DNA of 55,052 nucleotides. It comes from a virus (lineage: Duplodnaviria; Caudoviricetes). The notes below the pieces were generated by a model. It had not been told where the DNA came from, made no database searches, and saw only the letters and a list, made by a program, of their open reading frames with translations. Position numbers and translations under genes: made by a program. The stretch lies in IMG/VR virus record IMGVR_UViG_3300044546_001769, positions 1-55,052 of that record; one strand, given 5' to 3'. Each line of letters starts with the position of its first letter. Positions within the stretch are counted from its first letter, which is position 1. This document shows, piece after piece, positions 2,683-48,187 of the stretch.

Positions 2683-4500
2683 ATGATTTTAACCAATGTA
2701 CAACCATCGCCAAAAGACCCGCGGGATTACAAATATCCAACGGCTACACCAGCAACAACTTCTTCGCTGCCATTTTCAGTTGATCTACGTGAATTTGCGG
2801 GTGATATAGAACAACAAGGACAAACTGGTTCGTGTGTCGCAAATGCTGCAGTAAGTGCATTGGAAATATTATTAACACGACAAGGTCAATTTGAAAACTT
2901 GTCGCGACTATTTCATTATTGGAATCTACGTCAAGGTTATCCTGATCTTGCTGGTGTAGACAGTGGTTCTTATCCACGTGATGCATTTAAACTTGCAAAT
3001 CAAATTGGTATCTGCGATGAAATAACATGGCCTTTTGATGAATCAAAAGTAAATGTACAACCATCACAAGCTGCATTTGATGATGCGTCATCAGTTAAGG
3101 CTTTTGGATATTATTCTATTGCAATGGGATGGACACAAGAACACAGGGCAACATCGCTTCTTACAATTAAACAAGCAGTATCAAGCGGTTATCCTGTTTT
3201 GATTGCTGCTCATATAAACGCAGAATTTCAACAGATTTATTCAACTAATCTTGAAGGAACTCAATCACAGTTTGTTAATGCACAATTTCCAATTGGAGCA
3301 CACGCTGTCTTGGTTGTAGGTTATGCTGGAAATTCATTATTGATTGAAAACTCATGGGGTACAAGCTGGGGATGCAACGGCTATGCATTAATACCAGGTC
3401 TTGCATTAATGTTGGATACATTTGAAGCTTGGGTATGTACTGGCGTAAACGGAAATCAAATACCAAAACTTGCCAGCGCAACTCCGCTTGGCAATCCCCC
3501 AAAGTGGTGGCAAGTTGCACCTAATTTAACACCAGTTGCAGCTTGGGATGCCAAACGTGTTAATGGAGCTCAACTAATTGACGGTGTAGGTAATAACAAC
3601 ATAACAGCAACAAGTGAATTGATTAAAACAGACTTCCTATTTTTAGGTGTTGCTGGAAACAGTGACCCAATGACGTTATCGACACCTGTACCAATTCCTA
3701 GTGTAGGCGTTGTTGCTGGATTCTGGAGTCCAAAACGGCGAAACGTTCTGTTGTCAAAAGAATATGGTAACACCAGCAGTTATGCATTACATCTTTCAAG
3801 TGACGGCAATGGTTGGTATTCTAATAATGAAAGTTCTTATGAATATTACGGTCAATATGGTGAACTTGGAGAGCGTTATTTTGTTGCAATGGTAACACGT
3901 GGAGACGACTCAATTTTGTACGTTGACGGAAATTTAGTTGGCAACCCAATTAGCAGTAGCAGAACAATGAGTCATGTCGGGCTAATTGGTTATGCAACAA
4001 ATGGCAACGAGTTCAACCTTGACTCGGATGAATTTCTCCATGCTGTGGGCATTTGGTCTGGAGCGGCAACTCAAGATGATATTAAAGTAATTGAAGCAGC
4101 AGCTCGACTTGAATTAAAAGGTGCTAACATGACAAGTCGGGGCTTTGCAGCCCGAACAGGTCGAATGGAGTTCCCCATTCCTCAGCACCTTCTGCTTACG
4201 CCCGCACAACCACGATTCGTAGGTTCAACACTTACACGCCGTGATTACCAATTTGGTGGAAACGGACGAATCACGGGTACTGTAAAAGAAAAGGGCACGA
4301 CTGACCAACCGATACAACGGCGGGTGCAGCTGTATGACGAAACCAGCAAGGTAATGACCCGCGAGGCGTGGAGCAACCCTGTTACGGGCGCTTACCTTTT
4401 CGAAAACATCGACCCGTTGCTGACCTACACCATTATAAGTTATGACTACACAGGCGCGTACAAGGCTGTTGTAGCAAATGGTATAAAAGCGACAATATGA
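2683..4500 (+). CDS. Chimeric protein: papain-like C1A cysteine peptidase + LamG/ConA-like domain + C-terminal tail-cassette domain
   Basis: QQGQTGSCVANA (catalytic Cys), GAHAVLVVGY (His), ENSWGTSWG (Asn); LamG-like ILYVDG; C-terminal GNGRITGTVKEKG...RRVQLYDE...GAYLFENID. Confidence 0.85.
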   Translation: MILTNVQPSPKDPRDYKYPTATPATTSSLPFSVDLREFAGDIEQQGQTGSCVANAAVSALEILLTRQGQFENLSRLFHYWNLRQGYPDLAGVDSGSYPRDAFKLANQIGICDEITWPFDESKVNVQPSQAAFDDASSVKAFGYYSIAMGWTQEHRATSLLTIKQAVSSGYPVLIAAHINAEFQQIYSTNLEGTQSQFVNAQFPIGAHAVLVVGYAGNSLLIENSWGTSWGCNGYALIPGLALMLDTFEAWVCTGVNGNQIPKLASATPLGNPPKWWQVAPNLTPVAAWDAKRVNGAQLIDGVGNNNITATSELIKTDFLFLGVAGNSDPMTLSTPVPIPSVGVVAGFWSPKRRNVLLSKEYGNTSSYALHLSSDGNGWYSNNESSYEYYGQYGELGERYFVAMVTRGDDSILYVDGNLVGNPISSSRTMSHVGLIGYATNGNEFNLDSDEFLHAVGIWSGAATQDDIKVIEAAARLELKGANMTSRGFAARTGRMEFPIPQHLLLTPAQPRFVGSTLTRRDYQFGGNGRITGTVKEKGTTDQPIQRRVQLYDETSKVMTREAWSNPVTGAYLFENIDPLLTYTIISYDYTGAYKAVVANGIKATI

Positions 4501-8206: not shown

Positions 8207-9214
8207 ATGACTTATATGGTTGCAGCTATTCTCGATAATGACGCAAGCATCAATACAATAACTACACCAAGGGGAGAAATGGGAGCATTCATTGGTGAAG
8301 GGTTGTTAAATACTGGATCATTGTCAACGACTAATTTTGACAAAACGCAAACGTATAATCTTCAACCAGACGGCTATGCTGCAATACCGGTTGGCAGCAC
8401 TATCGATGATTTTTTTCAAATTTCTAGATCGTCTAATGTTGCAATTATAAACTCTGTGTCAATAGCGGTCAACCTTGAAACGTGCGTATCTTTACTGACT
8501 GGTTGGAGATTTGGTTTTGATAGTACTACAAACAGACAACGACAGGGAATGTTTGGAACTGTACGTGTAACTAATCAAACATCAACTACTAGTTATGACC
8601 TTGCAAGCGGTTGGGAATATCCAGCGTACAATTCTAACAGCTGGGATAGAATATTTTGTCCTATTAGTGTATTTTCTGGAAATGGAAAATTTTATATTTT
8701 TTATGTTGTACTTGGAAATACTACAGTAGTTCAAGATGCGTTTAGAAGACGCGTTTGGATAGGTTTAAAGGAGTCAGATGATGGTATCGATTGGCAGAAT
8801 GTCACTGAACAAGAAATAACTCAAGATCAAGTCATTTCTCCTTTTTTACACTTTGCGATCAGTGGGACTGAAAAGTTCGCGTTTCAGTCAACAAAAAGTT
8901 GGGTTGGAGACAAATACTTTATTGGTGATATAATTTTAGGTAAGTTGATATATTCAAACAACGGTCTTAGTGAATGGACAGATCATCCAATAGGTCGTTT
9001 TAACGGTCTACATTGGTATACTGAAAATGGAGCTCCCGTGTTATGCGCAGTTCGTATTGGCGATGACGGATGCTTTGGAACAAAAATTTGCGATGTCTAT
9101 GGCAATATGCTGCCAATTAGCTGGAAAAGATCTGCAACACCATGGGATTGGTCAATTAACAGGCTAGATGCCGGATATATAGCTCCTTCAAACAAACACG
9201 GCGGACTAAAATGA
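8207..9214 (+). CDS. Hypothetical structural protein (beta-rich, Asp-box-like SDDGIDW)
   Basis: SD aaggag; 335 aa ORF in tail module. Confidence 0.7.
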   Translation: MTYMVAAILDNDASINTITTPRGEMGAFIGEGLLNTGSLSTTNFDKTQTYNLQPDGYAAIPVGSTIDDFFQISRSSNVAIINSVSIAVNLETCVSLLTGWRFGFDSTTNRQRQGMFGTVRVTNQTSTTSYDLASGWEYPAYNSNSWDRIFCPISVFSGNGKFYIFYVVLGNTTVVQDAFRRRVWIGLKESDDGIDWQNVTEQEITQDQVISPFLHFAISGTEKFAFQSTKSWVGDKYFIGDIILGKLIYSNNGLSEWTDHPIGRFNGLHWYTENGAPVLCAVRIGDDGCFGTKICDVYGNMLPISWKRSATPWDWSINRLDAGYIAPSNKHGGLK

Positions 9215-12051
9215 CAACATTTACATTTTCATCTTACATTTCTGGTTCTGCTCCATCTACCAACGTTTTTGATTACGGATTTTTTAAAAATCATAAAATT
9301 TTACGATGGACCGAACTTGTTTATGGTTTAGAAATGACTGCTGCAGAAATAGCAAACTCTACAGAACTAAAATTTGTTATTCCTTCGATAGCGCCTGCAC
9401 AAAAAATGTTAAATCAGTTAATTCAAAATGAGAGTATTAGAGCAGCAGATGATGATTTAGATTTTTATTGCATGGGCGTTATAACAAAATCAAATAACAC
9501 TGTTGAATACTTTGACGTTGTTTCTAGCACAAAGGTTTATGGTATTAATGATCTTAATCTTTCAGTGTCATCAGAAACGCCACCGGCTGAATACGCGTTG
9601 ACGTATTTGTTACGAATGATCAACTATTCAAACAGCGACAATTATGATTATAAGTTTGAACGTCTAGCGAATCAAACCACATTTACGGTTAATATTCCTC
9701 CTAGTAAACTTTTGAATGCTGTACGCATAGGTATAGCTGTATATCCTAAATTCTGTCTTGATATTATTGCGCAAACGATTGGCGGCGGCGGAAATAATAA
9801 CGGAGGCGGTGGTGGCGAATCAATTGGAAACATGATTTGGGATTCTAATTCCAGCGCATATATTTCTCAAGAACCGGTTCAGACAAACGGAAAAAGTCAA
9901 TTCACATACACGTTTGACGTATCTCGACTCAAGAATGAAGTAGATCAATTAGTCATCGCGAATGAAACAGATCCAGAACTTCCAGAAAATCTTTTACAAA
10001 TTTTAACTGGGCCGCGTGCTTATGATTGTTGTGTTATTGCACTAGCAATAGAAGACATGGAAGCATTCAGTGGAATGTTTGGAGTTGCAACACATCAGTC
10101 AAGCGGTGCAGTTAATGATCCAAGAAATCTTAGTTTTGATCAAAATATCATTAAAATATTTGCGCAGCAAGTTCTCGCTGGAAATATACAACCAATGCCA
10201 ACCAATGATGGAATAAACACAATAAATGTTGTTTACGAAAGTGACGTGAATCAAGGCTCATTGTTATGTTGTTTCGTGTTCTCGTATGCTATGATGGCTG
10301 CGATGGAAGCCGAAGGCGGGTTTAATAATGATGGTGAGGATGAAACTCCTATTGAGTATGCTCCGTACAGATTTTTCGGGTATGAATCGAGTTTATATAT
10401 AAACATTAATCCAGAATATTGGAGAAATGCAAATGGATGGAGCAGTAATGTAGGCCAAACTAGCATAGCATTTATTGTTACTAATGTTTGGTTGCCAGGT
10501 CAAATAAAACCGGAACTGTTAAACTTCAGTTTAACGCCTGACTCGCAGTATGAACATGGTCCGTACAGACTTGAATTTTATTCGTACTGGGAAAATACAT
10601 TCCCTGACATGTCAGACAAAACAGAACAACAATGGAATGAGCTGCTGTCAGTTCCACTTGGCGAGCTTGATGGTTTTGGAAATATTGATATTAATATTCC
10701 AAGCGACTATGGAAATATTGTTATTGTGAAAGTTATAGCTTATAATTCTGGACCAGTAGAACACGTTCCTATGTTGACGGTTACTGCTAAAGAAATTCAA
10801 AACAACGTACCGTCGATGTTAGCTGGATATACTATAACAGATTTAGATTTTGCAAGTAATTGGTATGGATTTGCTTTGGATTCAAATTCTGAAACTACTG
10901 GCATAACTAACAGAACGACATACTGCAAAGTATTCAGAATAAACAATATAGACAATATGTCTGGAGCAGGATGGGTTCGCGTTACCACTCCAGATTCAAA
11001 TGCATGGATTTACAAATTCAATGCAGATTCACATGAGTTTGGTGATTTTGATCGTGATGGCGGTCGCAAGTTTTTATTGATCTCTGAAGAAGAATTACAA
11101 AAACCAGTTTATATAATGGTAACAACACCCAATGAATATCAAACTGGCTGGTTTAATATTTTATCTGGAAGTGAAGATTTTGCTGGTGATAGACGATACC
11201 AAATTTTTGACTCCTCATTTAATGAATTAATAACGCTAAATGATACATCTCCGACTTCTGCGTTTAACAGATATGATGGAAGAATAGTAGAAGAAAATAA
11301 TTGGTGCGACATTAATGATATTCAGCCAACAAAGCGTGCTACCGACGGCAATACATACAATAAAGAATTAATAGACGACCCTCGAGGAAACGGAAAAATC
11401 TGGAAAATAACTCCAATAATGAATCCTGGATCGTATTATGAAATGAATAGTACGATGCTCGGCGAAACTTTTTATGCGAATAGACCAACAGATTTGGGCC
11501 ATTATTATGTGTATTATAAAGGAACTTGGAACAATAATCATAAACCACTAACACCTAGCACTGTTCACGAGTTTATTGCTGATGCAGGACTTTCATCTGA
11601 CGATTACGATGATTTTATTATAACATATAATTCCTCTATTGGTGGCATTGTTACTAGAAAATATATCGGAGAAACCGCCGATATCTGGAGCAATCCCATT
11701 CCACAATATAGAACGAATTTTATTGATTTGTCGGGTTGGACTATTGTACTCATTGCTGAAATATATTTCAACGGCGTTCCAAATGGTTTGTTACAGGAAG
11801 TTGGCTATAATGGTACATACACAACAGCACTTGACAAATTATTTAGAGAAAGCTCACATTTTGAATATAGCGATTTAAAACAATATTTTACAGATCCATC
11901 AATCGCCGGAATAATAGGTTATTATAATCGAACGTATAATAACCAAACAGATCAAAACGATGAGTCATATACAATTGATTATATAAGAGAAGTACGAATT
12001 GGAGAAGATTATACCGGCACGTTCTATATCAAACCTCTTGAATATTTGTAA
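9211..12051 (+). CDS. Large hypothetical structural protein with Gly-rich linker and a degenerate PPC-like segment
   Basis: 946 aa ORF with ATGA overlap; GGGGNNNGGGGG; VYIMVTTPNEYQTGWFNI resembles a PPC C-terminal strand. Confidence 0.65.
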   Translation: MTTFTFSSYISGSAPSTNVFDYGFFKNHKILRWTELVYGLEMTAAEIANSTELKFVIPSIAPAQKMLNQLIQNESIRAADDDLDFYCMGVITKSNNTVEYFDVVSSTKVYGINDLNLSVSSETPPAEYALTYLLRMINYSNSDNYDYKFERLANQTTFTVNIPPSKLLNAVRIGIAVYPKFCLDIIAQTIGGGGNNNGGGGGESIGNMIWDSNSSAYISQEPVQTNGKSQFTYTFDVSRLKNEVDQLVIANETDPELPENLLQILTGPRAYDCCVIALAIEDMEAFSGMFGVATHQSSGAVNDPRNLSFDQNIIKIFAQQVLAGNIQPMPTNDGINTINVVYESDVNQGSLLCCFVFSYAMMAAMEAEGGFNNDGEDETPIEYAPYRFFGYESSLYININPEYWRNANGWSSNVGQTSIAFIVTNVWLPGQIKPELLNFSLTPDSQYEHGPYRLEFYSYWENTFPDMSDKTEQQWNELLSVPLGELDGFGNIDINIPSDYGNIVIVKVIAYNSGPVEHVPMLTVTAKEIQNNVPSMLAGYTITDLDFASNWYGFALDSNSETTGITNRTTYCKVFRINNIDNMSGAGWVRVTTPDSNAWIYKFNADSHEFGDFDRDGGRKFLLISEEELQKPVYIMVTTPNEYQTGWFNILSGSEDFAGDRRYQIFDSSFNELITLNDTSPTSAFNRYDGRIVEENNWCDINDIQPTKRATDGNTYNKELIDDPRGNGKIWKITPIMNPGSYYEMNSTMLGETFYANRPTDLGHYYVYYKGTWNNNHKPLTPSTVHEFIADAGLSSDDYDDFIITYNSSIGGIVTRKYIGETADIWSNPIPQYRTNFIDLSGWTIVLIAEIYFNGVPNGLLQEVGYNGTYTTALDKLFRESSHFEYSDLKQYFTDPSIAGIIGYYNRTYNNQTDQNDESYTIDYIREVRIGEDYTGTFYIKPLEYL

Positions 12052-12062
12052 AACATTATTTT

Positions 12063-12070
12063 TATAAATA
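12063..12070 (+). promoter_or_regulatory. T4-type late promoter TATAAATA
   Basis: Exact T4 gp55 consensus in the intergenic gap, 28 nt before ATG 12099; gp55 is encoded in the window. Confidence 0.8.
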
Positions 12071-12098
12071 TGGTGTATCTTGAAACAACAACAAAAAA

Positions 12099-12542
12099 AT
12101 GAATCAACAAGTACAACCTCAAAAAGAAGAATTTCCACCCGAGTTTGACCGGCGTGGAGCTAATCGCGCCGCCAGTCAATGGATTCGTAATGCACTACAT
12201 GAGCAGGGCGAAAAAATAGACGGCATAAAGGCTGAAGTGCATGAAATAAAGGGAATTCTTGAAAAAACAATTCCAGAATCAGACTGGGACGGTCATCGCA
12301 AGAGTCATTTAATTTTTCTTCAACGTGAAGAAGAATTGAGAAAGCACGAAGCTGAGCACAAAAAACTACAAGAAGAACAACGACTTTTTTGGTCGGGTAT
12401 AAAACAAGATATAATAAAATATTCACTGAGAGCAGCAGGAATATTTTTAATTGGTATTTTTATACTAGGTGGTCAAGCAAAATTTAAAGAATGGATTCGT
12501 TTAGCAATGGCAGAACAACCTGCTATAGAGGTTAAAAAATGA
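12099..12542 (+). CDS. Membrane protein, putative holin-like (coiled coil + C-terminal TM)
   Basis: DWDGHRKSH motif, coiled coil and TM AAGIFLIGIFILGG; pattern recalled from betaproteobacterial phage lysis-region proteins. Confidence 0.55.
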   Translation: MNQQVQPQKEEFPPEFDRRGANRAASQWIRNALHEQGEKIDGIKAEVHEIKGILEKTIPESDWDGHRKSHLIFLQREEELRKHEAEHKKLQEEQRLFWSGIKQDIIKYSLRAAGIFLIGIFILGGQAKFKEWIRLAMAEQPAIEVKK

Positions 12543-12976
12543 AAGACGAACATATTCTAACACTGGTTGGATGGGTGGCATTTGTTATGACGTTGTTTTT
12601 TGGAACAATTGTATTTTATACATTTGACGGAACACCACCTTTTGAAATAAGCGACTCAGTTAGTAGCGTAACTAGAGAAGAAAATGGTAATTATGTACTA
12701 ACTGAAAGTCGCGGCTTTGTTGGGCATGATAGTCAAGTTCTTACGATATTTAGAACGTTGTATAAAAAGGAGGACGACAAGCACGTAAACAGCATTGAAG
12801 GCGGTTCTGTCATGAATCAAAATGATGATTATGTTGTTTTAAGAGCTATTCAAATTCCTCCACACTTGAATGGTTGGTGGTGTTCACGCGCTATTGTTTT
12901 TTGGAGACCGTCACTTTCACTTAAACAACACAGTTTAAATTTACCTGACCTTTGTTTTGAAATACCAAGAAAATGA
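12539..12976 (+). CDS. Membrane-anchored periplasmic protein
   Basis: N-terminal TM (LTLVGWVAFVMTLFFGTIVFY), beta-rich domain with two Cys; ATGA overlaps on both sides. Confidence 0.7.
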   Translation: MKDEHILTLVGWVAFVMTLFFGTIVFYTFDGTPPFEISDSVSSVTREENGNYVLTESRGFVGHDSQVLTIFRTLYKKEDDKHVNSIEGGSVMNQNDDYVVLRAIQIPPHLNGWWCSRAIVFWRPSLSLKQHSLNLPDLCFEIPRK

Positions 12977-13758
12977 AAAAAATATTTTTTGTATTAGTAT
13001 CATTGTTTATTTCTGTTTCTGTATTTGCACAATCTGCTAAAAAAATAAGAATAGTCACTGAAGACTTTCCTCCATTTCAAACATTACAAAATGGCGAAAT
13101 TGTTGGTCCAATGTACAGTGTAATGCAAGCAATTTGTAAAGAGGCAAAACTCTCGTGTAACATTGAATTGCTGGAATGGAAAGACGCATATAGACAAGCA
13201 CTAGATGGAAGTGCTGACGTTGTTTTCTCTATTTTATTGGAAGTGCCGGAGAGAGCTCAATTCTTTTACATGTCGCCGTCAATAGTAGATACAAGTTATT
13301 CATTGTTTGTTACAAGCCGAAACAAATGGAAATATACTGGATATGAATCACTTGAGGGCATGAAAATTGGAGCGTACGGTCCAAGTGGAACAAGTATTGT
13401 TGCTCAAGAATTAGTAAAAGGACGAGAAATTGCAGGCTTTTCTGTTGTTCCACTTACTATAGAACCAAGTATAGTCGAAAGTTTCCAGCAGCTGATTACT
13501 GGAAAGTATGGCGACAATGGAGCAGTCGTTGTCAATAAAGATGTTGGGCTAGCACTGTTGAAGAAACATTCTATTTTTGGACCCAAACCTGCCGGTGATA
13601 TTAAAAGCATAACGTACGGATTTGGTTTTTCTAAAAAGAGTCCAAATGCCGCAGAATTTCAAAAAATGGTAGACGCTCTTAGGCGTTTGCAAGATAATAA
13701 AACCATTGTTGAAACACTTCGCTGGCACGGCTTAAAAGCATCTCAACACAAAAGATAA
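12973..13758 (+). CDS. Periplasmic solute-binding protein, family 3 (amino-acid ABC type)
   Basis: Signal peptide ending VFA; IRIVTEDFPPF...G.ADVVFSI...ERAQFFYMSPSI...LEGMKIGAYGPSGT...YGFGFSKKS. Confidence 0.9.
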   Translation: MKKIFFVLVSLFISVSVFAQSAKKIRIVTEDFPPFQTLQNGEIVGPMYSVMQAICKEAKLSCNIELLEWKDAYRQALDGSADVVFSILLEVPERAQFFYMSPSIVDTSYSLFVTSRNKWKYTGYESLEGMKIGAYGPSGTSIVAQELVKGREIAGFSVVPLTIEPSIVESFQQLITGKYGDNGAVVVNKDVGLALLKKHSIFGPKPAGDIKSITYGFGFSKKSPNAAEFQKMVDALRRLQDNKTIVETLRWHGLKASQHKR

Positions 13759-13846
13759 TTTATTTTCGTAAAACTGTTATTACTATGATTTGTTGTTATC
13801 AAATGAAATTGATTCTAAACTTAAATTTCGATAAACTAAGGAAATC

Positions 13847-14305
13847 ATGGAATTTTATAACTACACAAATGCGCGTCAAATACGTGATCTGACAAAAGAA
13901 CGTGAGGCAAATTTTTGTTTAAACCAAATCGCAGAAAAATTTAATGGTAAAATTGAAGCAATTCATTATGACTATATATATGAAGTAGGAAATTCATTAA
14001 GTGATTTTAAAACTGTATGCAGATATCAATATGCAGAGATTCTTAAAAAACAATGTGATGTTCCTGAATTAGTTATAAAAGAACTTATGGACATAATTAA
14101 AAAAGAAGATACATTATTTTTCTTCTTAGTCGATTTTCCAAAAGGACAGTTTAGAAAATGTTCAGCCGAAATTTTCTCTTGTGTGAAAAGTTTGGGTTAT
14201 GTTTCTATTACGTTAGATGATTATAATCGTTCTGGAAGAGACGTTTGGGGAAGTTATGGTTTTTCTGGAGATTATTTGACGGATGGCAGAATAAAAATTT
14301 TATGA
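13847..14305 (+). CDS. Hypothetical protein
   Basis: SD aagga; 152 aa ORF. Confidence 0.7.
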   Translation: MEFYNYTNARQIRDLTKEREANFCLNQIAEKFNGKIEAIHYDYIYEVGNSLSDFKTVCRYQYAEILKKQCDVPELVIKELMDIIKKEDTLFFFLVDFPKGQFRKCSAEIFSCVKSLGYVSITLDDYNRSGRDVWGSYGFSGDYLTDGRIKIL

Positions 14306-14315
14306 AAGGTTTGGT

Positions 14316-14759
14316 ATGGATAAAATTGAAGAACAAATTAAGCAGCTAATTTCCGAAAAATTAAATGTTGATTTAGAAACAGCAAATGTAATTATCGTTG
14401 CAGTAAAATCTGGCAACGGCACTGCTGAACAAATTGAAGCATTCAACAAAATTGAACAAGAAATTAAATCTAAAATGGTCGATGTTTTTGGAAATGCTGC
14501 GCATGTAGAAAATCAAATTTCAGCAAGAAATTTAGCTATTACAAATAAAAGCAAAATTCCAGAATTCTTATCTGTTGTTATAACGATTGGTTTTTTTGGA
14601 ATCTTGGGTTATATGCTGACTATGGAATCTAAACCAAACGACACTATTTTAGTTATGCTTGGTTCGCTTGGTACAGCATGGATTGCTATTGTAAATTATT
14701 GGTTTGGATCTTCGAGCGGAAGTGCATACAAATCTGAAATAATGGCAAGACAAAAATGA
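14316..14759 (+). CDS. Putative holin (two C-terminal TM helices)
   Basis: LSVVITIGFFGIL...LVMLGSLGTAWIAIVNYWFGSSSGS motif typical of a widespread phage holin-like family. Confidence 0.7.
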   Translation: MDKIEEQIKQLISEKLNVDLETANVIIVAVKSGNGTAEQIEAFNKIEQEIKSKMVDVFGNAAHVENQISARNLAITNKSKIPEFLSVVITIGFFGILGYMLTMESKPNDTILVMLGSLGTAWIAIVNYWFGSSSGSAYKSEIMARQK

Positions 14760-15559
14760 AAATAAAAAAAATAACAGTTGATTTATATAAATGCGTAAAA
14801 AATGTTTTTTACATAAAAAATGTTTTTACAGCTTCTAATTCAAGCGATCCAGTGTGGCGTAAAAACTTTGGCGAGTTTGAAACACTGGCTAATACTGTTC
14901 CAAAGTTTACTAAAACTGTTTTTAATTTGTTAACTGGCGAACTCTCAAAAAATAATGAATTAATTTTAAAAGATGTTGACGGAGATGAGCATTGGTTTTA
15001 CATCAATGGTATAATGACATCAAAAGAAGTTGCTGCATATAATGAATTGGCATTAGAAAATATTTTTGGAAAAGAGTTTCATACACTCTACAATCCTACA
15101 AATGGTTTCGCAGCAGATATGTTGGAAGTATTCTATGAAAGAACATTAGACAACATTGCACCAATCACACGACAGCTTTTTGACATTATAGACGAGCTGA
15201 TTTATAACGATAAAAAAGTTAGAATCATTTCATATTCTCAAGGCGGAATAATCACGAATAACTTCTTAAAAATGATAGCAAAACATTCGAAATGCGGAAA
15301 AAAGTATTCGAATTTGGAAATATATACTTTTGGTGGAGCTGCAGACGAAGAAGTATTAGTTAAAGGCGTATATCAAGAACATTTTGGAAACGAAAAAGAT
15401 TTTGTTGCACGAATTGGATTGATGTTTGAAAATACTCAAAGTAAATATTATACTTTAAATAATGCGGTTGGACATTTGTTAAATCAAGATTACCTTGAAC
15501 ATTTTAAAGCCGGCAGATATTGTAACGGAAAATCAAAATTATTTAGCTATACACAATGA
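14756..15559 (+). CDS. Alpha/beta-hydrolase-fold protein
   Basis: WFYINGIMT, nucleophile elbow ISYSQGG, YTFGGAA, NEKDFVARIG, GHLLN. Confidence 0.7.
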   Translation: MKIKKITVDLYKCVKNVFYIKNVFTASNSSDPVWRKNFGEFETLANTVPKFTKTVFNLLTGELSKNNELILKDVDGDEHWFYINGIMTSKEVAAYNELALENIFGKEFHTLYNPTNGFAADMLEVFYERTLDNIAPITRQLFDIIDELIYNDKKVRIISYSQGGIITNNFLKMIAKHSKCGKKYSNLEIYTFGGAADEEVLVKGVYQEHFGNEKDFVARIGLMFENTQSKYYTLNNAVGHLLNQDYLEHFKAGRYCNGKSKLFSYTQ

Positions 15560-18150
15560 CCGCATTAACGATTACATCGAGTACTAATAAAGATAGCACA
15601 GTAGGGCGACTCGATGGTGAATCAGTAACAATTAATGAAGGAACTTTTTTAATTGACTCTGATACTCGATGGGCTCAAGATTCGACGGTTTTTGGAAATT
15701 TTAATTTTTCTTCTACGCAGAATGGCTCATTAGCAATTGATGCGTCAAAAACGTGGCAGATTAATTTTGCAAAAGTTTCTGGTACTGTGCCCGGTCTTGC
15801 TGCACTTGGTTCGAATACTGTAGTAGGACAAACTTCTGGCGCTACTGGAGAATTAATTCGAGTATGGGCAAACAATAACAAAGTTCCGCTGAGTGCAAAC
15901 GGTGATCTTCCTTCTGTCGGTTGGATAAAACTTCGTTATAAAAATGGAGATTTTATAACTGGTGAAAATTTAATTTTGCCAAATGGTGCAATCATTCGAG
16001 CGGAAGACTCTGGAAGACGCAGCTGGATTAATTTTGTCGTACAAGATACTGCAACTATAAGACCTACAAGGACGTGTAATTTAATTTCTAATGGTGATTG
16101 GTACGATTTGGGATTAACGTCCGGCAGTTTAAATCAACAAATTGAATATCCCATAGCCGATCAATGTCCAGCACTTCAGATTGAAACCGCTCCTGGTTCT
16201 GGACAGTTTCAATGGTGGCTAAATGCTGGCAGTCGTTGGGGTAGTCTAATAAAATTTGTTAGTACTGATGAACGTGGTCGCTACTTTGGATGTTCCGCAA
16301 CAGGAACAATTACACTTGCTCAAGGTGGAGTAAACGCATGCGGAAAACTTCCAGCTGCTAATTGCAGAATACGAATTCCCAATATACTTGTTTCTAATGC
16401 CACATTGATAAATTGGTCCCAGAATAGTCTAACAGCAGCAAAACCTACAATTTCTACTGCATCGCAGGGACGTGCATTTTTAAATTTTTTGTCTGGATCA
16501 TTTAATTTAGACTGTTCAAATTTTGATACTGTGGAAATTAAAAATACATCATTGCTTGGTTCAATTATTTGTTCAAATTTAAACTATCCAGTACTTTTAG
16601 AAAATATTGCCGTAGGTGTTCAAAATACTATTGACACAATACCTATTAAAATAACAAATCTTTTTGCTGGTGGAAAATTCAAAAAAATATTTTGTTCAAA
16701 ATTTTCGTCGCGATCTACTGATGCAACTCTTGTAATCACTGATTCTGAAAATTTAGAGTTCTCTGATGATTGTGAATTTCATATTTTTCCAAGTTTAACG
16801 TCTCTTTCACGCGGAAATTTACTGTGCAGTACAATCGATGTAAAACAATTGTACAAGTCTACATTCGATAATATTAAAATTGTTGGAGCCAGATTTGTAA
16901 ATTTCTATTGCGAAGATTTGGTTATTAGGAATACGCAGTATGCCGATGCAACGTCTGGTACAACTGGTCTGAATATTCAGCACAGCGCCTTAGACTTATC
17001 ATATTGTACTAATTGCAAAATAGACGGTGTTTCTTCTTACTATTCACTGAGTAATGTTCATCCGTATATATCAGTTGTTAATTTTGTAAATTCAAGAAAT
17101 ATTGATATTAGAAATATTGGAACACCGGTTCAGCCGTATAACTGTGGAACAGCTAATTCATGTGGATATGTTGTTAGTGGTTCTGCAACTAAAGGTATTA
17201 ATCTAATAAGAATTTATTCTATTAATACGCGTCTAAGCGTAACACAACTTGGAATACAATGTTCTGATGTCAATTTTATAAATGTTCAAGGCGATTATTC
17301 TGACTCTGGAACAGTAGATGCAAAAAACGCGGTCATTCGCGGAAGTAAGTGGATCTCTACTAATTTGACACGAGTTGGCAATACTGGAAAAATGTGGGAA
17401 GATGGATTTAATTCTGATATAACAGGATTTGTAACCATTGCATGTAATGAGCCGTATTCTTATCAAAATACCGAATTCGAAATTTTCGGAAAAGCTCGAT
17501 TTGACGCGGTTGGAAATATATTCTTGTCTGAAATCGGCGATAGCGTAGTATATACGCAACAATATTTCTGTTTAGGTCATGAATCGCTTGACTCATTTTT
17601 GTTTTTTGGAACTAACTCATCATATATTAAAAGACACTTTCAAATTGACACAGGTTCTGGATTTAACGGCACTTGGTTAGAAGTAACTACCGCAAATTTA
17701 CGTTCATTTATCATAAATCCTGTGGTTGGATTTAAATTAAAAATTAAATTTGCATGTGTTACTGCATCACCGAATAATCGTGTTTCTTTTTTAAGAATAA
17801 ATACAAAAACAAGTTTAGTATCCCAAAGAATACAATATACTGATTTACCGTCGTTTAACAATGGAAATACAGTTATAATTAAACCAGTAAACTTTGTATT
17901 GCGAATTTCAAATATTGTTGCTGGTTCTAAAATTGTTATTTTTAAATCAGCTGATGGAACAGATATCAATAAATCTGATTCTATTGATTCTGATTTTTAT
18001 GATTATAACTATACATATGAAAGTGACATTCCTGTAACAGTTGTAATCCATCATCAAGATTATAAAGAAGTGCGATTTAATGTGGTTTTATCAGAATCAA
18101 ACAATAACATTCCAATATTGCAACAGCTAGAACCGACGAGTTTAGAATAA
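15556..18150 (+). CDS. Large structural protein with probable beta-helix (tailspike-like)
   Basis: 864 aa ORF; repetitive N/I/C-rich beta-helix-like centre; late region. Confidence 0.65.
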   Translation: MTALTITSSTNKDSTVGRLDGESVTINEGTFLIDSDTRWAQDSTVFGNFNFSSTQNGSLAIDASKTWQINFAKVSGTVPGLAALGSNTVVGQTSGATGELIRVWANNNKVPLSANGDLPSVGWIKLRYKNGDFITGENLILPNGAIIRAEDSGRRSWINFVVQDTATIRPTRTCNLISNGDWYDLGLTSGSLNQQIEYPIADQCPALQIETAPGSGQFQWWLNAGSRWGSLIKFVSTDERGRYFGCSATGTITLAQGGVNACGKLPAANCRIRIPNILVSNATLINWSQNSLTAAKPTISTASQGRAFLNFLSGSFNLDCSNFDTVEIKNTSLLGSIICSNLNYPVLLENIAVGVQNTIDTIPIKITNLFAGGKFKKIFCSKFSSRSTDATLVITDSENLEFSDDCEFHIFPSLTSLSRGNLLCSTIDVKQLYKSTFDNIKIVGARFVNFYCEDLVIRNTQYADATSGTTGLNIQHSALDLSYCTNCKIDGVSSYYSLSNVHPYISVVNFVNSRNIDIRNIGTPVQPYNCGTANSCGYVVSGSATKGINLIRIYSINTRLSVTQLGIQCSDVNFINVQGDYSDSGTVDAKNAVIRGSKWISTNLTRVGNTGKMWEDGFNSDITGFVTIACNEPYSYQNTEFEIFGKARFDAVGNIFLSEIGDSVVYTQQYFCLGHESLDSFLFFGTNSSYIKRHFQIDTGSGFNGTWLEVTTANLRSFIINPVVGFKLKIKFACVTASPNNRVSFLRINTKTSLVSQRIQYTDLPSFNNGNTVIIKPVNFVLRISNIVAGSKIVIFKSADGTDINKSDSIDSDFYDYNYTYESDIPVTVVIHHQDYKEVRFNVVLSESNNNIPILQQLEPTSLE

Positions 18151-26362: not shown

Positions 26363-26959
26363 ATGACATCTCAGCTTAAAGTCGTTGATCCTGTAGATCC
26401 AGCCAACCCTCGATATTACTTAGACAAAGCAGCAATGCACGCAGCTTTGGCTCAATATAAAGAGGATTGTGAAAAAGCAACAGCTGAAGGAAAACCACAG
26501 CCTAATATCCCAAATTACATTGGTGAATGTTTTATGGGAATCGCCAAAGGCTATGCAATGAAGTACAATTTTCGATCGTATTCATTTGTAAATGATATGA
26601 TTGGTGATGCTGTAATGACTTGTATTAAGTATATTCGTTCATACGATCCAGACCGTCGAAATGAAAGTGGAACTGCAACATCACCTCTTGCGTATTTTAC
26701 TCAGTGTTGTCACTATGCGTTTTTAGGACGTATTGCTCTTGAGGCAAAGCAGAGTAAGATCAAACGATCGCTAATCATGAATGCGGATTTTGATACTTTC
26801 TCATTACAGGGTGATGATGATGCAAAAGATTTTCATATGCATCTTGTTGAGTTTACACAGTCGTTGGGTCCAGATACAGATGCTTCGCCAACAGAGTCAA
26901 AGAAAAAACGTGAAACAAAACAAAAAACCGTTGGACCACTTGATAACTTTTTAGAATGA
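26363..26959 (+). CDS. gp55: Late transcription sigma factor
   Basis: IPNYIGECFMGIA...NFRSYSFVNDMIGDA...PLAYFTQCCHYAFLGRI; upstream of gp47/gp46. Confidence 0.93.
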   Translation: MTSQLKVVDPVDPANPRYYLDKAAMHAALAQYKEDCEKATAEGKPQPNIPNYIGECFMGIAKGYAMKYNFRSYSFVNDMIGDAVMTCIKYIRSYDPDRRNESGTATSPLAYFTQCCHYAFLGRIALEAKQSKIKRSLIMNADFDTFSLQGDDDAKDFHMHLVEFTQSLGPDTDASPTESKKKRETKQKTVGPLDNFLE

Positions 26960-32229: not shown

Positions 32230-32304
32230 ACGGGTGAAGCTTAATTGGATAAGCAGCTGGCTTCTACCCAGTCGATAGTGCAAGTTCGAATCTTGTCACC
32301 CGTA
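32230..32304 (+). tRNA. tRNA-Arg(UCU), no encoded CCA
   Basis: Acceptor ACGGGTG/CACCCGT, D-stem GCTT/AAGC, anticodon stem GCTGG/CCAGT with loop CT-TCT-AC, T arm GCAAG-TTCGAAT-CTTGT. Confidence 0.85.
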
Positions 32305-32336
32305 CACAGCAAATTCAAACACTTCTGTAAAATATC

Positions 32337-37062: not shown

Positions 37063-37150
37063 GCGGCGTTAACTCAGCTGGCCGAGAGTAGCAGACTCAT
37101 AATCTGCCGGAGTAATCCCACCGTTGGTTCAAATCCAACACGCCGCACCA
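37063..37150 (+). tRNA. tRNA with CAU anticodon (Met or Ile2) and long variable arm
   Basis: Acceptor GCGGCGT/ACGCCGC-A-CCA, D-stem ACTC/GAGT, GCAGA-CTCATAA-TCTGC, 15-nt variable region with GGA-GTAA-TCC, GTTGG-TTCAAAT-CCAAC. Confidence 0.9.
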
Positions 37151-44201: not shown

Positions 44202-46460
44202 ATGTTAAGAGCCTTTATTTTAGCACTAATGTTGTGCGGCTCTGCTCACGCTTTACCGATATCGGTAAACAACAACTTTACTTCCAAGTCAATTGGCGGC
44301 GTTGTAGAGGTCTTTGAAGACAAATCGGGTGAAATTGAGATAGCTGACGTTTTAAGCAGTTCTCACATTCAAAACCAATTTGCTAGCATGCATAGTGAAA
44401 CGCCTAACTTTGGCTATACAGACAGCAGTTTTTGGGCACGTATCAACCTGAACGATTCTCGCAAGAGCGCGTTCTCAGCTTATGCAGAACCACTATACTT
44501 AAAGTACGGGTATGCACAGACTGACTACGTTGCTATCTGGTGCTATAACGACTTTAAATCAGAAGTCATGCACCAAAAAGCGGGAGATCATGTGCCTCGT
44601 GCTGAGTGGTCTAGTAGCTATAGAGAGCCGGTATTTGTTATTCCTAGCGATGCCAGAGTTTGTTACCTCAACGTCAAGACGACTTCTGCAGTTCAGCTCT
44701 CCCTCGTACTCTATTCAGAAAAAGAGTTCAATAAGTTCTTTGTTTTAGATAGTGCGCTGCAAGCAATGTACTTTGGCGCACTGCTAATCTCTGCCGCATA
44801 CAACCTGCTGATAGCTTTCTCATTACGCTCTAAAGCATACTTTGCCTACACCGTATTTTTACTGACGTACGGTACTTTTCAGATTTCCTACAACGGCTAT
44901 GGCTATGCCTTATTTTGGACTGACATGATTGGTTTTGCGGACAAGATTCTACCTTTTATGATTCTGACGATTGGCGTAACTTCATGTACTTTCACTTCGC
45001 TGCTCTTGAATCTGAAAAAAGAGTCACCACGATTTCATAGGCTAGGCTTTGCCTTGATGATAATAATTGGAACTCTTGCAGTAATAACACTGTTTGCCGA
45101 TTACAAGATAGCTCTAATGTCCACTTTTATATACAGTCCGGTTTGGGCTTTCTTCCTGCTGGGTTCTGGCTGTTACTTGGCTTACAAAGGTATGCGCGTA
45201 GCTAAGATTTACCTAATGGGTTGGTGGATGTTTGTCATCGGGACTATGGTTATTATTTGTAGTCGAATAGGCTACCTACCAGTAAATGACATAACCACTA
45301 ATGCAACGCAGATAGCTACAGTGCTTGAGTTTTTGCTATTTTCCTTTGCGCTTTCAGATCGTATCAATACAACTCAAAGTGACCTAATCAAAGCTCAAAA
45401 GAAGATTGCAGAAAATCTTAAAGCGTCAGAGCAAGAGCTTGAAACCAAGGTTGAGCAACGCACCAAAGAGCTATCAGATACCCTTGAAGAATTGCAGTCC
45501 ACGCAAACACAACTCGTCCAAGCTGAGAAGTTGGCGTCGCTAGGCTTGCTGGTGAGTAACGTAGCCCATGAACTTAATTCACCTATTGCTTCTATCATGT
45601 CAAGCGGAGATTCTATTGCATCGTCGGTCAATGAGATGGTAGATAACTTGCCTGAGATTATTCGACAGTTAGAAGGTGGTGACAGGGAATTGTTCTTTGA
45701 CTTGATAATGCACCCTAAAGTGCAACGTGACTTTGTGCCAAAAGAGGAACGACAACAAACACGCGAGGTTACTGCAAAGCTCAACGAACGCGGTATTGAT
45801 GGTGCAATGCGCAAAGCCCGTCTGCTAGTGCGACTAGGTGTGTACAAGGAGGTTGATAAGTTTATGCCATTACTCCAATCCAAGGACAGCGATTTTGCTC
45901 TGAACGTAGCAGCGGGGATTGGAGATGTTTTAAGTGGTACACACAACATCAACTCCGCGGTTGAACGTGTAAACCGCATCATCTTTGCGCTCAAAGAACT
46001 TGCAGGCACGGAGCGTGTCATGGCAATGGAAACAACCTACCTTCACGTAACGATAGAAAAGGCGCTGAACTCGTACCGACACCTGATGAAAGACGTTAAG
46101 GTAGTTTTCAATCACGCGCCAATAGAAGCTATACAGTGCGACCCCGAAGCCATGCAGCAAGTGTGGACACATTTAATCATCAATGCACTTCATGCCATGA
46201 AGTACAAAGGTACGTTAGCAATTGACCTATCATGTATAGACAACCAAGCAAGAGTGTCTGTAAAGGACGAAGGTACCGGCATAGGACTTGACGTGCAAGC
46301 AAAGATGTTTGATGCTTTCTACACAACGAAAACATCAGGCGAAGGTGGTGGAATGGGACTGGCGATTGTTAAGAAAGTTGTAGAGCAGCACCGAGGACGC
46401 ATACAGGTGACTTCTGAAATTGGCGTTGGTACAACCTTTGTTGTCTTTTTACCTTTATGA
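44202..46460 (+). CDS. Sensor histidine kinase with 7TMR-DISM extracellular and 7TM domains
   Basis: PNFGYTDSSFW (DISMED2), ~7 TM helices, H-box VAHELNSP, N-box QVWTHLIINA, G1 DEGTGI, F-box FDAFYTTK, G2 GGGMGLAIV. Confidence 0.92.
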   Translation: MLRAFILALMLCGSAHALPISVNNNFTSKSIGGVVEVFEDKSGEIEIADVLSSSHIQNQFASMHSETPNFGYTDSSFWARINLNDSRKSAFSAYAEPLYLKYGYAQTDYVAIWCYNDFKSEVMHQKAGDHVPRAEWSSSYREPVFVIPSDARVCYLNVKTTSAVQLSLVLYSEKEFNKFFVLDSALQAMYFGALLISAAYNLLIAFSLRSKAYFAYTVFLLTYGTFQISYNGYGYALFWTDMIGFADKILPFMILTIGVTSCTFTSLLLNLKKESPRFHRLGFALMIIIGTLAVITLFADYKIALMSTFIYSPVWAFFLLGSGCYLAYKGMRVAKIYLMGWWMFVIGTMVIICSRIGYLPVNDITTNATQIATVLEFLLFSFALSDRINTTQSDLIKAQKKIAENLKASEQELETKVEQRTKELSDTLEELQSTQTQLVQAEKLASLGLLVSNVAHELNSPIASIMSSGDSIASSVNEMVDNLPEIIRQLEGGDRELFFDLIMHPKVQRDFVPKEERQQTREVTAKLNERGIDGAMRKARLLVRLGVYKEVDKFMPLLQSKDSDFALNVAAGIGDVLSGTHNINSAVERVNRIIFALKELAGTERVMAMETTYLHVTIEKALNSYRHLMKDVKVVFNHAPIEAIQCDPEAMQQVWTHLIINALHAMKYKGTLAIDLSCIDNQARVSVKDEGTGIGLDVQAKMFDAFYTTKTSGEGGGMGLAIVKKVVEQHRGRIQVTSEIGVGTTFVVFLPL

Positions 46461-46473
46461 GTTAGTGATTAAA

Positions 46474-47064
46474 ATGAATACAAATAAAATCGATTGTCAT
46501 GTAATAAATTCAAACGAGCCAGACGAATGGAAGCGACAATGTCTAGACAGCATAGAAACTGCACCAATTATTCTACACGAGGTCTCTGGAATTCCTGGAA
46601 AAGTTGGTGCAGCACGACATGCTGGATTTTCTAAAGGCAACAAACCGTTTGTATCTTTTGTTGATTTTGACGATTTTTATAATTCATTTGCATTTAATGC
46701 TCTGCAGAACTGTTTAGAAAATAATCCTTCAGTAGTTCTTGCATATACTAATGAGGTATATGTTAATGAGCAAGGTCACGTCATGTGCGAACGAAACCTT
46801 TCATACAGCAGAAAAAAACACATCTCTTATGGCGATCATGTTCATGGTTTAATGCTTATTAGACGCTCTGCATTGTCAACAGTTCTTGATTCAATCGTTG
46901 ACGTTGAAAATTATTCAGAATGGTTCTTAACACTTCAACTCTCAAAGCTTGGAGAAATACGACACTTGCCGATCATAGGTCGATTCTGGCGACAGCACTC
47001 GCGGCAATCGCATTTGAAAGCTGATCCTGTTACTGTTAAAAAAATAAAAAATCTTTTCACGTAG
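46474..47064 (+). CDS. Glycosyltransferase family 2-like protein
   Basis: QCLDSI, GAARHAGF, FVSFVDFDD (DxD), WRQH; start re-called from 46420. Confidence 0.8.
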   Translation: MNTNKIDCHVINSNEPDEWKRQCLDSIETAPIILHEVSGIPGKVGAARHAGFSKGNKPFVSFVDFDDFYNSFAFNALQNCLENNPSVVLAYTNEVYVNEQGHVMCERNLSYSRKKHISYGDHVHGLMLIRRSALSTVLDSIVDVENYSEWFLTLQLSKLGEIRHLPIIGRFWRQHSRQSHLKADPVTVKKIKNLFT

Positions 47065-47115: not shown

Positions 47116-47346
47116 ATGAGCATCGATTTGCCAAATATGAGTACTAAAGAGATCATTTTATTAAATAAAATATGGTCGTGCGATTCACTAGATGAATTTA
47201 AAACTTGGAAAGAGAGTTTATGTGAATCTGACCAGCTTCTTGCAAATGATCTGCTTTTTGCACTCTCTGCAGAAATAGAACTTCAAGAAGAACAATCGTA
47301 CAGTGAAGCTCAACAACTAATAGAAAAAATAAAAAGGAAGATATGA
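47116..47346 (+). CDS. Hypothetical protein
   Basis: SD aagga; LLNKIWSCDS..EF..WK.SL. Confidence 0.7.
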   Translation: MSIDLPNMSTKEIILLNKIWSCDSLDEFKTWKESLCESDQLLANDLLFALSAEIELQEEQSYSEAQQLIEKIKRKI

Positions 47347-48082: not shown

Positions 48083-48187
48083 ATGCATAAAATGGTCTTG
48101 ATTTGTGTATTGATGTGCGTTGTTTCTGGCTTTGCACTACCATCTTTGTACTATAAAACGAATGAGTCTGATATGGAGATCGCTTAA
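48083..48187 (+). CDS. Small hydrophobic peptide (34 aa), not in the ORF track
   Basis: SD aggga; MHKMVLICVLMCVVSGFALPSLYYKTNESDMEIA; TAATG coupling to the next gene. Confidence 0.55.
   Translation: MHKMVLICVLMCVVSGFALPSLYYKTNESDMEIA

Follow-up and report, generated by a model that had tools for sequence, protein, structure and literature searches.

A translationally coupled gene trio with a family-3 solute-binding protein in phage lysis clusters, a possible accessory of the lysis cassette

A virus record of the IMG/VR database, 55,052 bp long and here called the window, carries three overlapping genes that encode a tail-anchored membrane protein (gene A), a bitopic membrane protein with a periplasmic domain (gene B), and a secreted family-3 solute-binding protein (SBP; gene C). 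CheckV estimates that the window covers ∼31% of a genome. By its gene content, the window is part of a T4-like phage genome: its DNA polymerase is 42% identical to cyanomyophage polymerases, and it encodes a T4-type set of gp46/47-, UvsX-, gp41-, gp44/62/45-, and RegA-like proteins. Seventeen DNA runs, and no RNA run among those listed, contain all or part of positions 11500-15600, and the labels of the DNA runs are mostly lake or freshwater. GenBank phage records gave no match to the region by DNA, to the SBP by tblastn (1e-5), or to gene B by tblastn (E <= 1), and a cultivated relative was not found among them. In the window, the trio sits between tail-fibre-like genes, behind a short motif; lengths are given in nucleotides (nt) and amino acids (aa), and ORF stands for open reading frame.

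12063-12070, + strand: TATAAATA, a T4-type late-promoter motif, 29 nt upstream of the gene A ATG
12099-12542, + strand: gene A, a 147-aa tail-anchored membrane protein (ORF, hydropathy)
12539-12976, + strand: gene B, a 145-aa bitopic protein (ORF, hydropathy, structure model)
12973-13758, + strand: gene C, a 261-aa secreted family-3 SBP (Pfam SBP_bac_3, PF00497)

The initial annotation of this DNA had described a perfect late-promoter motif ahead of three genes coupled through ATGA overlaps, and both the motif and the overlaps at the A/B and B/C junctions are present where it placed them. It had further read the products as a protein with a C-terminal transmembrane (TM) segment, an N-anchored periplasmic protein with two cysteines, and a family-3 SBP, without a permease or ATPase in the window. 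These descriptions stand, on hydropathy for gene A, on hydropathy, the structure model, and the Cys115/Cys139 pair for gene B, and on a Pfam match above the cut-off for gene C. The scan of 70 window ORFs against Pfam gave 0 matches to the ABC permease and ATPase families BPD_transp and ABC_tran, which were also not found among the scanned neighbour genes of related loci.

Related loci were collected through the SBP. A query with the single SBP gave no related loci, and an alignment of 36 homologues was used as the seed instead, yielding 14 IMG/VR loci and one 63-kb contig binned into an Oxalobacteraceae metagenome-assembled genome (MAG); loci are denoted by L numbers, the MAG contig being L017. 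In searches with the window proteins by tblastn, A, B, and C were found in the same order in L002, L004-L013, and L017. The GC-rich L014 carries a divergent B (E 2e-12) and a 110-aa A-like protein (E 0.001) of the same build, a coiled coil with a C-terminal TM segment. Gene B lies directly upstream of the SBP gene in 13 of 13 evaluable contigs, accompanied by A in 12 of them and by a weak match in one; L003, which begins inside the SBP gene, and L015, which is the opposite end of the L005 contig, were not scorable upstream. The synteny check, which had been set beforehand, was thus passed, and the trio is co-conserved. Its overlaps are retained as well, the A/B ATGA overlap in 13/13 loci and the B/SBP overlap in 13/13, and the gene arrangement is far beyond chance.

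The three genes are inherited together, the pairwise identities of their products being correlated (r 0.82-0.92), and mean identity rises from 53% for A to 68% for B and 77% for C. Across several phage backbones the identity of the module is 50-90%, and the trio is kept while the flanking genes are mostly unrelated to those of the window. The backbones include the T4-like window, the integrase-bearing L008 and L015, and L014 with lambda-E capsid, Mu gp36, and tape-measure genes. As judged from these comparisons of gene content, the trio is a horizontally mobile, translationally coupled unit shared by phages with otherwise unrelated backbones. L005 and L015 form the two ends of one 46,999-bp IMG/VR contig; both ends hold the 3' part of the SBP gene, so this contig is probably a whole genome, circular or terminally redundant, from an integrase-bearing phage with the cassette.

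In neighbour scans, a Pfam-recognised endolysin gene was present ∼1 kb or less downstream of the SBP gene in 14/14 related contigs. The endolysins are of different classes.

L002, L006, L008, L005/L015, and L017: Glyco_hydro_108 endolysin (GH108, with PG_binding_3)
L003, L004, L007, and L009-L013: Peptidase_M15_3 endolysin
L014: Phage_lysozyme endolysin

The connection with lysis that had been proposed for the trio is borne out by this directly downstream endolysin in every related contig, and the trio probably belongs to lysis clusters as far as gene order can tell. In L007 and L009-L013, the SBP and endolysin genes are separated by a GTA_holin_3TM gene (E 1e-8 to 3e-9), and a 201-aa TM-rich protein is encoded just ahead of the lysozyme in L014. 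The SBP stop codon and the start of the gene that follows overlap in L002, L006, L008, and L017, and the endolysin gene comes immediately after the SBP gene in L008, L015, and L017.

The SBP itself is recognised at 47 bits by SBP_bac_3 (cut-off 26.4; E 2.8e-12) over residues 28-245. Hydropathy places a hydrophobic segment at residues 4-22, followed by an Ala-x-Ala-like site with no lipobox Cys, and export via a signal peptide is predicted. The Cys55/Cys62 pair and Arg94 are invariant in the 36-sequence alignment. The profile of these 36 homologues has its nearest solved structures in the Gln/Arg-binding domains 6h30 (E 3.7e-15) and 4zv1 (E 1.7e-13); at E <= 1e-5 it matches 12 structures, all of them amino-acid-binding domains, with no MltF. 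In HisJ/LAO-type proteins, a conserved Arg contacts the carboxylate and an Asp the alpha-amino group of the ligand. In alignments of hidden Markov models (HMMs), Arg94 of gene C falls on the Arg of the 4zv1 motif 'T-x-x-R', and the position of the alpha-amino-binding Asp of amino-acid SBPs is occupied by Asn188, which is at least 90% conserved. Homologues of gene C number 80 at E <= 1e-3, and all those above 64% identity are metagenomic or phage-labelled. Because these close phage and metagenome copies are 64-90% identical and the nearest named cellular proteins only 31-33%, gene C does not look, by sequence, like a gene taken recently from a host. On the minus strand of L018, a Saccharospirillaceae genome, there is a weak and partial relative of the SBP at 8448-9254 (37% identity over 114 aa); it lies ∼2 kb from a gene resembling a histidine kinase gene of the window, and there are no A or B relatives there.

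One explanation for such a protein in a phage is that it is the product of an auxiliary metabolic gene, in which case the SBP would boost uptake of an amino-acid-like nutrient via a host ABC importer and A and B would be unrelated neighbours. The SBP_bac_3 fold signature, the signal peptide, and the conserved Arg94 agree with this role, the JGI labels on homologues read 'polar amino acid transport system substrate-binding protein', and, as the phage has no permease or ATPase, any transport would need host parts. The distance to named cellular relatives is however unlike that of recently captured host genes, the Asp expected to bind the alpha-amino group is replaced by Asn, and the SBP gene is joined by overlap to B in 13/13 loci and lies near endolysins in 14/14. 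An apparent late promoter would also suit the feeding of replication poorly. An SBP that feeds a host ABC importer is the less likely interpretation, and we consider this explanation improbable.

The abutting SBP and endolysin genes of L008, L015, and L017 are consistent with a different role, that of a cell-wall-fragment binder. Like the non-catalytic N-terminal module of MltF, the SBP would bind muropeptides in the periplasm and position or activate the endolysin, with A and B as its membrane dock. The NCBI name of one gene C homologue, P0015, is 'Solute-binding protein family 3/N-terminal domain of MltF', and gene C matches the 674-position profile of phrog_10776 at positions 39-263 only, which implies that fused longer forms exist. 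Counter to this, the endolysin class varies (GH108, M15_3, lysozyme) while the SBP stays 64-86% identical, which argues against a specific enzyme partner. MltF is absent from the 12 structural matches, and the window phage keeps its SBP without an adjacent endolysin. There seems little chance that this role is the correct one.

Gene B encodes one N-terminal hydrophobic segment (residues 6-24). Its structure model consists of a TM helix at residues 3-29 and an eight-strand periplasmic immunoglobulin (Ig)-like beta-sandwich at 35-142, with a predicted local distance difference test score (pLDDT) of 97 and a predicted template modelling score (pTM) of 0.85. In a 50-sequence family alignment, Cys115 and Cys139 are each at least 90% conserved, and the pair fits a periplasmic disulfide. 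The best fold matches are Ig-like domains of glycoside hydrolase family 2 (Z up to 11.1, root-mean-square deviation 2.2, 99 aligned), followed by LIF-R, the Wzt carbohydrate-binding domain, and ApaG, so that the sandwich is of the common Ig/FN3-like kind. Such a modelled sandwich is a typical protein-binding scaffold. Ig-like domains, and no lysis protein, came up in the fold searches, although a related protein can be missing from such a list. The gene B profile matches 67 representative clusters (50% identity) at E <= 1e-3 among 1.84 billion proteins, and none of the 64 cluster representatives scanned had a meaningful Pfam match. Among bacterial genomes it is found in 1/401 of the order of the MAG and 1/401 of the phylum, each time only in the MAG-binned phage-like contig, and the family appears to be phage-restricted.

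Gene A has no Cys and a single hydrophobic segment near its C-terminus (residues 105-123; TM about 105-127). The predicted layout is an N-terminal cytoplasmic coiled coil of ∼105 aa, a C-terminal TM segment, and a short conserved periplasmic tail; the model has two long helices, 18-57 and 63-138, of which the second enters the membrane (pLDDT 76.5, pTM 0.32). An N-terminal basic motif, two His, and the short tail after the TM segment are conserved. Among the loci compared, the tail is conserved where the SBP is encoded and short or different in L023 and L024, which lack it, a pattern that gives a weak hint of a periplasmic contact. The 19 members of the gene A family gave no Pfam match, with DUF2730 and XhlA absent among the matches listed (25 of 30 families). 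Searches in ESM Atlas, Pfam, and BFVD returned coiled-coil noise only, including an insignificant XhlA-named match in BFVD (E 3.7). The initial annotation had taken the gene at 12099 for a holin, and this part of it is not supported: one C-terminal TM segment after ∼105 coiled-coil residues is atypical of a holin, no family matches, and the holin-type genes beside the endolysins are others, GTA_holin_3TM in six contigs and relatives of a downstream gene, E, in six.

The promoter motif TATAAATA occurs as a single exact copy in the 55 kb, against 4.8 copies expected by chance, and taken alone it is not evidence of a promoter. The window also encodes a protein that would be the factor reading it.

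26363-26959, + strand: gp55-like late sigma factor (phrog_234 'late sigma transcription factor', E 3.6e-44)

Copies of its core, ATAAATA, are far fewer in the window than chance predicts (6 against 21.3 +/- 4.6 expected), and 6/6 are on the coding (+) strand. Comparison with the ORF list places 4/6 within ∼130 nt upstream of start codons, at 12099, 35379, 44202, and 48187. Together with the encoded gp55-like factor, this depletion, strand bias, and proximity to start codons make the late promoter credible, and the earlier reading of 12063-12070 as a late promoter is plausible. A terminator scan found no site between the SBP gene and the following genes D, E, and F, the overall number of sites being as expected by chance. 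Because no terminator-like site separates C from these genes, the transcription unit probably continues through them.

13847-14305, + strand: gene D, a 152-aa protein of unknown function (homologues between the endolysin gene and the E-like gene in L008 and L017)
14316-14759, + strand: gene E, a 147-aa holin-like membrane protein (phrog_1544, unknown function, E 2.4e-6)
14756-15559, + strand: gene F, a 267-aa serine-esterase-like protein (start overlaps the end of E)

No Pfam or PHROG family was matched by gene D. The product of gene E has a soluble N-terminal part and C-terminal TM segments, with TM at 84-102, and its homologues occur in the lysis clusters of L002, L006, L008, L015, and L017 (42-46% identity) and of L021 (29%). 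By sequence it is the best holin candidate of the window block. Six E-like proteins gave no match to GTA_holin_3TM (PF11351) at E <= 10, and alignments of the two gave an hhalign probability of 26.8% over 16 columns. Gene F has a weak match to DUF676 under the cut-off (E 0.016); with a cut-off of 20.3 bits, its homologues score 20.8 bits in L005 (E 2.9e-4) and 22.8 bits in L017 (E 7.6e-5). Homologues of F are found directly upstream of gene A in L005, L008, and L017, and the order in L017 is F, a 35-aa one-TM ORF, A, B, SBP, GH108, D, a 58-aa ORF, E, a 127-aa ORF, and SNase. As window genes A-F all have homologues in the L008 and L017 clusters, the window block at 12063-15559 is, in gene content, the same cassette without a recognisable endolysin. 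In T4-like phages the endolysin gene is unlinked, which fits a window block without one.

The presence of separate holin-type genes bears on the possibility that A and B are themselves lysis effectors, that is, a two-component holin, a releasin- or XhlA-like pair, or a spanin replacement, with the SBP as a helper. Gene A resembles membrane-tethered cytoplasmic lysis proteins in architecture only. The class III holin T of T4 has an N-in/C-out topology with a disulfide-bearing periplasmic domain, and gene B has an N-in/C-out topology with a periplasmic domain predicted to bear a disulfide. In 9/11 loci, a crude lipobox scan around the lysis genes, on the coding strand, turned up no convincing candidate for an o-spanin, which would leave a place for a replacement, but the scan did give two possible embedded candidates, at 7926-8057 in L008 and 7809-7919 in L014. 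GTA_holin_3TM or E-like genes already stand beside the endolysins, and the 19 members of the A family match neither DUF2730 nor XhlA among the matches listed. As for spanins, there is no lipobox in A, B, or C, the coiled coil of A is cytoplasmic, and B has a TM segment but a periplasmic beta-sandwich, a single Ig-like domain that, from the model, would be too small to bridge the periplasm. On balance an effector role for A and B is rather unlikely.

Several other genes recur in the clusters around the trio. Lipolytic-type genes (alpha/beta hydrolase, patatin-like phospholipase, or DUF676-like esterase) are present in these Gram-negative-type lysis clusters.

L002, 6744-7682 and 9096-9965: lipolytic-type genes
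L005, 4171-5013: lipolytic-type gene
L006, 7378-8241: lipolytic-type gene
L008, 4179-4982: lipolytic-type gene
L017, 4251-5060: lipolytic-type gene
Window, 14756-15559: lipolytic-type gene (gene F)

A secreted SNase-like nuclease is encoded after the E-like gene in L002, L006, L008, L015, and L017, and at lysis the lipolytic and SNase products might have the outer membrane or released DNA as their targets. A conserved one-TM ORF of ∼35-50 aa, absent from the window, lies directly upstream of gene A in five loci and may be a fourth member of the module.

L002, 4994-5119: one-TM ORF
L005, 5006-5113: one-TM ORF
L006, 5023-5148: one-TM ORF
L008, 4934-5086: one-TM ORF
L017, 5057-5164: one-TM ORF

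In the group with M15 endolysins, the place directly upstream of A is taken by a conserved protein of 135-137 aa with Cys/His motifs and a hydrophobic C-terminal tail, the L007 copy of which had no Pfam or PHROG match.

L004, 4674-5081: 135-137-aa protein
L007, 4727-5137: 135-137-aa protein
L010, 4766-5179: 135-137-aa protein
L011, 2390-2803: 135-137-aa protein

Genes A and B also occur as a pair without the SBP. A degenerate pattern back-translated from B found a single true locus in viral contigs, L021, in which an A-like gene, a B-like gene, an M15_3 endolysin gene (also phrog_894 'endolysin', E 7e-33), and an E-like gene follow one another with no SBP gene. In metagenome contigs the same pattern gave 21 stretches, one of them a true B relative (L045, 1.2 kb); the remaining 20 arose by chance, the pattern being too loose at the ambiguous Ser codons. 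Single distant B representatives used as queries found one locus each for P0152 and P0145 and none for P0191 and P0116. The gene A relatives in L014, L021, L023, and L024 are weak or architectural matches. The SBP subfamily has been seen only together with A and B. As the pair also occurs without the SBP, A and B are, on this distribution, the core and the SBP a later add-on.

Taken together, gene order and protein architecture are best accommodated by a lysis-cassette accessory module, possibly ligand-gated, a reading to which we give slightly less than an even chance. With the same reserve, A, B, and the SBP would form the front part of a horizontally mobile lysis-gene block that comprises A, B, SBP, D, the holin-like E, and the esterase-like F, at 12063-15559 in the window. 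In the proposed mechanism, A and B would assemble into a complex in the membrane, A working from the cytoplasm and B from the periplasm, and would adjust lysis at its membrane step by way of holin triggering or of endolysin release. The SBP, with or without a small ligand bound in the periplasm, would dock on the Ig-like domain of B or on the short periplasmic tail of A, and this docking would make lysis timing depend on the ligand.

Ligand-gated lysis timing as such is put forward only tentatively. In its wider form, many uncultured phages of freshwater bacteria would time lysis by a secreted family-3 SBP and a B-A membrane relay acting on the holin, a proposal that we regard as speculative and rather doubtful. 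The SBP would read a nutrient, a cell-wall fragment, or a signal, and the relay would hold back or trigger the holin. Lysis inhibition of this kind would be chemically gated, would have no sequence kinship with T4 RI/T/RIII, and would reside on a cassette exchangeable between unrelated phages.

A number of observations weigh against the accessory-module reading. Synteny is not proof of function, since junctions between lysis and tail-fibre modules are classic sites for unrelated cargo. The loci with the trio come from one SBP-seeded search and include near-duplicates (L010-L013 are 93-98% identical to each other, L007/L009 95-100%), so that the number of independent lineages among the 14 contigs is perhaps 8. 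The Pfam and PHROG scans recognised no endolysin in the window. L023 and L024 carry an A-like gene, a B-like gene, a gene for a 180-191-aa protein, and a large terminase gene, with no SBP and no endolysin in the DNA examined; because two of the three SBP-less loci thus precede terminase genes, the lysis linkage of A and B is not universal. Asn188, in the place of the ligand-binding Asp, also counts on this side, as do the searches around LydB, the P1 holin antagonist. In ESM Atlas, the LydB cluster is the nearest named cluster of gene B (features 0.88, TM-score 0.71/0.73, 131 residues), which makes LydB a functional analogy and a lead for gene B, with no family assignment. Membership of gene B in the LydB family was rejected: the hhalign probability against P1 LydB is 0.2%, PF16084 is matched by 0/27 and 0/64 family members, and no LydB-named protein is present in the BFVD top 50. 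The Ig-like sandwich of B is itself a generic fold.

If the junction tolerates insertions, the trio could stand beside lysis genes for that reason only and serve as superinfection-exclusion or envelope-modifying cargo (a 'moron') that keeps competing phages out, for instance through occupation of a host permease or binding of ejected proteins. The exclusion proteins of T4, Imm and Sp, are located in the inner membrane and the periplasm, respectively, and all three products of the trio are predicted envelope proteins. The trio is kept while its flanks differ strongly between loci, it occurs in integrase-bearing phages (L008, L015) as well as in the T4-like one, it lies between tail-fibre-like genes without a recognised endolysin in the window, and the A-B pair of L023 and L024 is away from recognised lysis genes. 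Yet an endolysin in 14/14 contigs, across three backbones and three endolysin classes, is more regular than a permissive insertion site predicts, and in several loci translational coupling ties the SBP to the next gene of the lysis cluster. Exclusion genes are usually expressed early or lysogenically, whereas the sole promoter-like element here is of the late type. Cargo of this kind is an unlikely explanation, though one with an appreciable share of the probability.

An accessory module for lysis would be of interest because lysis timing sets burst size and epidemic dynamics. Lysis inhibition in T-even phages is the only well-understood environmental control of lysis, and the accessible text of a study on vibriophage ICP1 provides a second example of such control (PMC7182436). 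If the accessory-module reading is true, an SBP wired into lysis cassettes would give phages a simple, testable way to link lysis with the chemistry beyond the cytoplasm. With three genes in ∼1.7 kb the module is compact, and its soluble SBP and soluble Ig-like domain offer experimental handles. A role for the A and B families, the latter with at least 67 clusters, would annotate many phage genomes.

Further features were noted elsewhere in the window. The gene at 44202-46460, with ATAAATA 92 nt upstream, encodes a 7TMR-DISM-type sensor histidine kinase of 752 aa (7TMR-DISMED2, 7TMR-DISM_7TM, and HATPase_c), and the gene after it (46420-47064) matches phrog_19440, of unknown function. Of the proteins encoded at 47343-47999 and 48187-48561, one bears an N-terminal methylation motif like that of type IV pilins (N_methyl, E 3.3e-9) and its neighbour a weak PA-IL lectin similarity under the cut-off. 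The tail region encodes a protein with a papain-like Peptidase_C1 domain (2683-4500; E 1.5e-14), and a collagen-repeat tail-fibre protein (3-1211) extends past the window start. Intergenic regions of the replication block share a common TTTACTTTTA ... TGTATAAT-like promoter pattern, and the window has a tRNA-Arg(tct) gene at 32230-32305 and a tRNA-Met gene at 37063-37150.

Among known systems, the trio has points in common with the T, RI, and RIII proteins of T4. Both sets combine a bitopic protein that has a periplasmic domain with a secreted periplasmic partner and a partner facing the cytoplasm; like the T4 t gene, which is expressed late and lies near tail-fibre genes, the trio is found near such genes in a T4-type genome, and it would be expressed late according to its predicted promoter. 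Lysis inhibition in T4 involves the holin T, the periplasmic antiholin RI, and the cytoplasmic antiholin RIII, as outlined in the accessible parts of PMC8385771 and PMC11413866. The differences are that no relationship in sequence or fold was found, B being an Ig-like sandwich and A, B, and C having no Pfam or PHROG match to T, RI, or RIII; that the periplasmic partner in the trio is an SBP, while RI is a small protein thought to sense superinfection; and that the cytoplasmic partner in the trio is membrane-anchored and a separate holin-like gene, E, is present.

The lydA-lydB pair of phage P1 is likewise ATGA-joined, behind a late promoter, and near tail-fibre genes. LydB has ∼147 aa and a short hydrophobic N-terminus and is the named protein to which B comes closest in ESM Atlas; its mechanism is unknown, and it is said in the accessible text of PMC9025707 to lack predicted TM domains. 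LydA, with 109 aa, is unlike gene A, which has a long coiled coil and one C-terminal TM segment.

XhlA of PBSX is a membrane-tethered cytoplasmic lysis protein. The releasin gp25 of phage Mu is described in the accessible text of PMC9239132 as a membrane-tethered cytoplasmic protein required for the release of a signal-arrest-release (SAR) endolysin. Gene A resembles gp25 (DUF2730) and XhlA in being membrane-tethered, mostly cytoplasmic and helical, and encoded in a lysis cluster; gp25 and XhlA take part in the membrane step of lysis and are not classical holins. The TM segment is N-terminal in gp25 and C-terminal in A, for which there is no Pfam match.

Cyanophage PstS, which is thought to boost phosphate uptake via the host importer, resembles gene C as a secreted SBP in a phage without its own permease or ATPase. 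The SBP of the trio differs in that it is always tied to A-B and lysis genes, far from cellular SBPs, and apparently late. The N-terminal module of MltF shares with it an SBP_bac_3-type domain associated with a peptidoglycan-cleaving enzyme; in the trio, the SBP is a separate protein with neighbouring endolysins of varying class.

Signalling by SBPs is established outside phages. A family-3 SBP, GlnH, signals through a dedicated membrane protein, GlnX, instead of or besides a transporter, according to the accessible text of PMC9769921, and sensor kinases activated by SBPs, such as AgtS and AruS, are covered in that of PMC11113362. As far as these texts describe them, the GlnH-GlnX-PknG and SBP-kinase systems share with the trio a family-3-type SBP that reports, or in the trio would report, a ligand to a membrane protein encoded by an adjacent gene. 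The difference is that A and B are single-pass proteins without a kinase or recognisable output domain and that their context is a phage lysis cluster. At the level of abstracts in the openly accessible literature, no link of an SBP to a phage lysis cassette or to lysis inhibition was found. New here would be the trio as a mobile unit inside lysis clusters and its A and B families, which are unnamed in Pfam. By analogy, the logic of the trio resembles both T4 RI/T/RIII and GlnH-GlnX-type signalling, without membership in either family.

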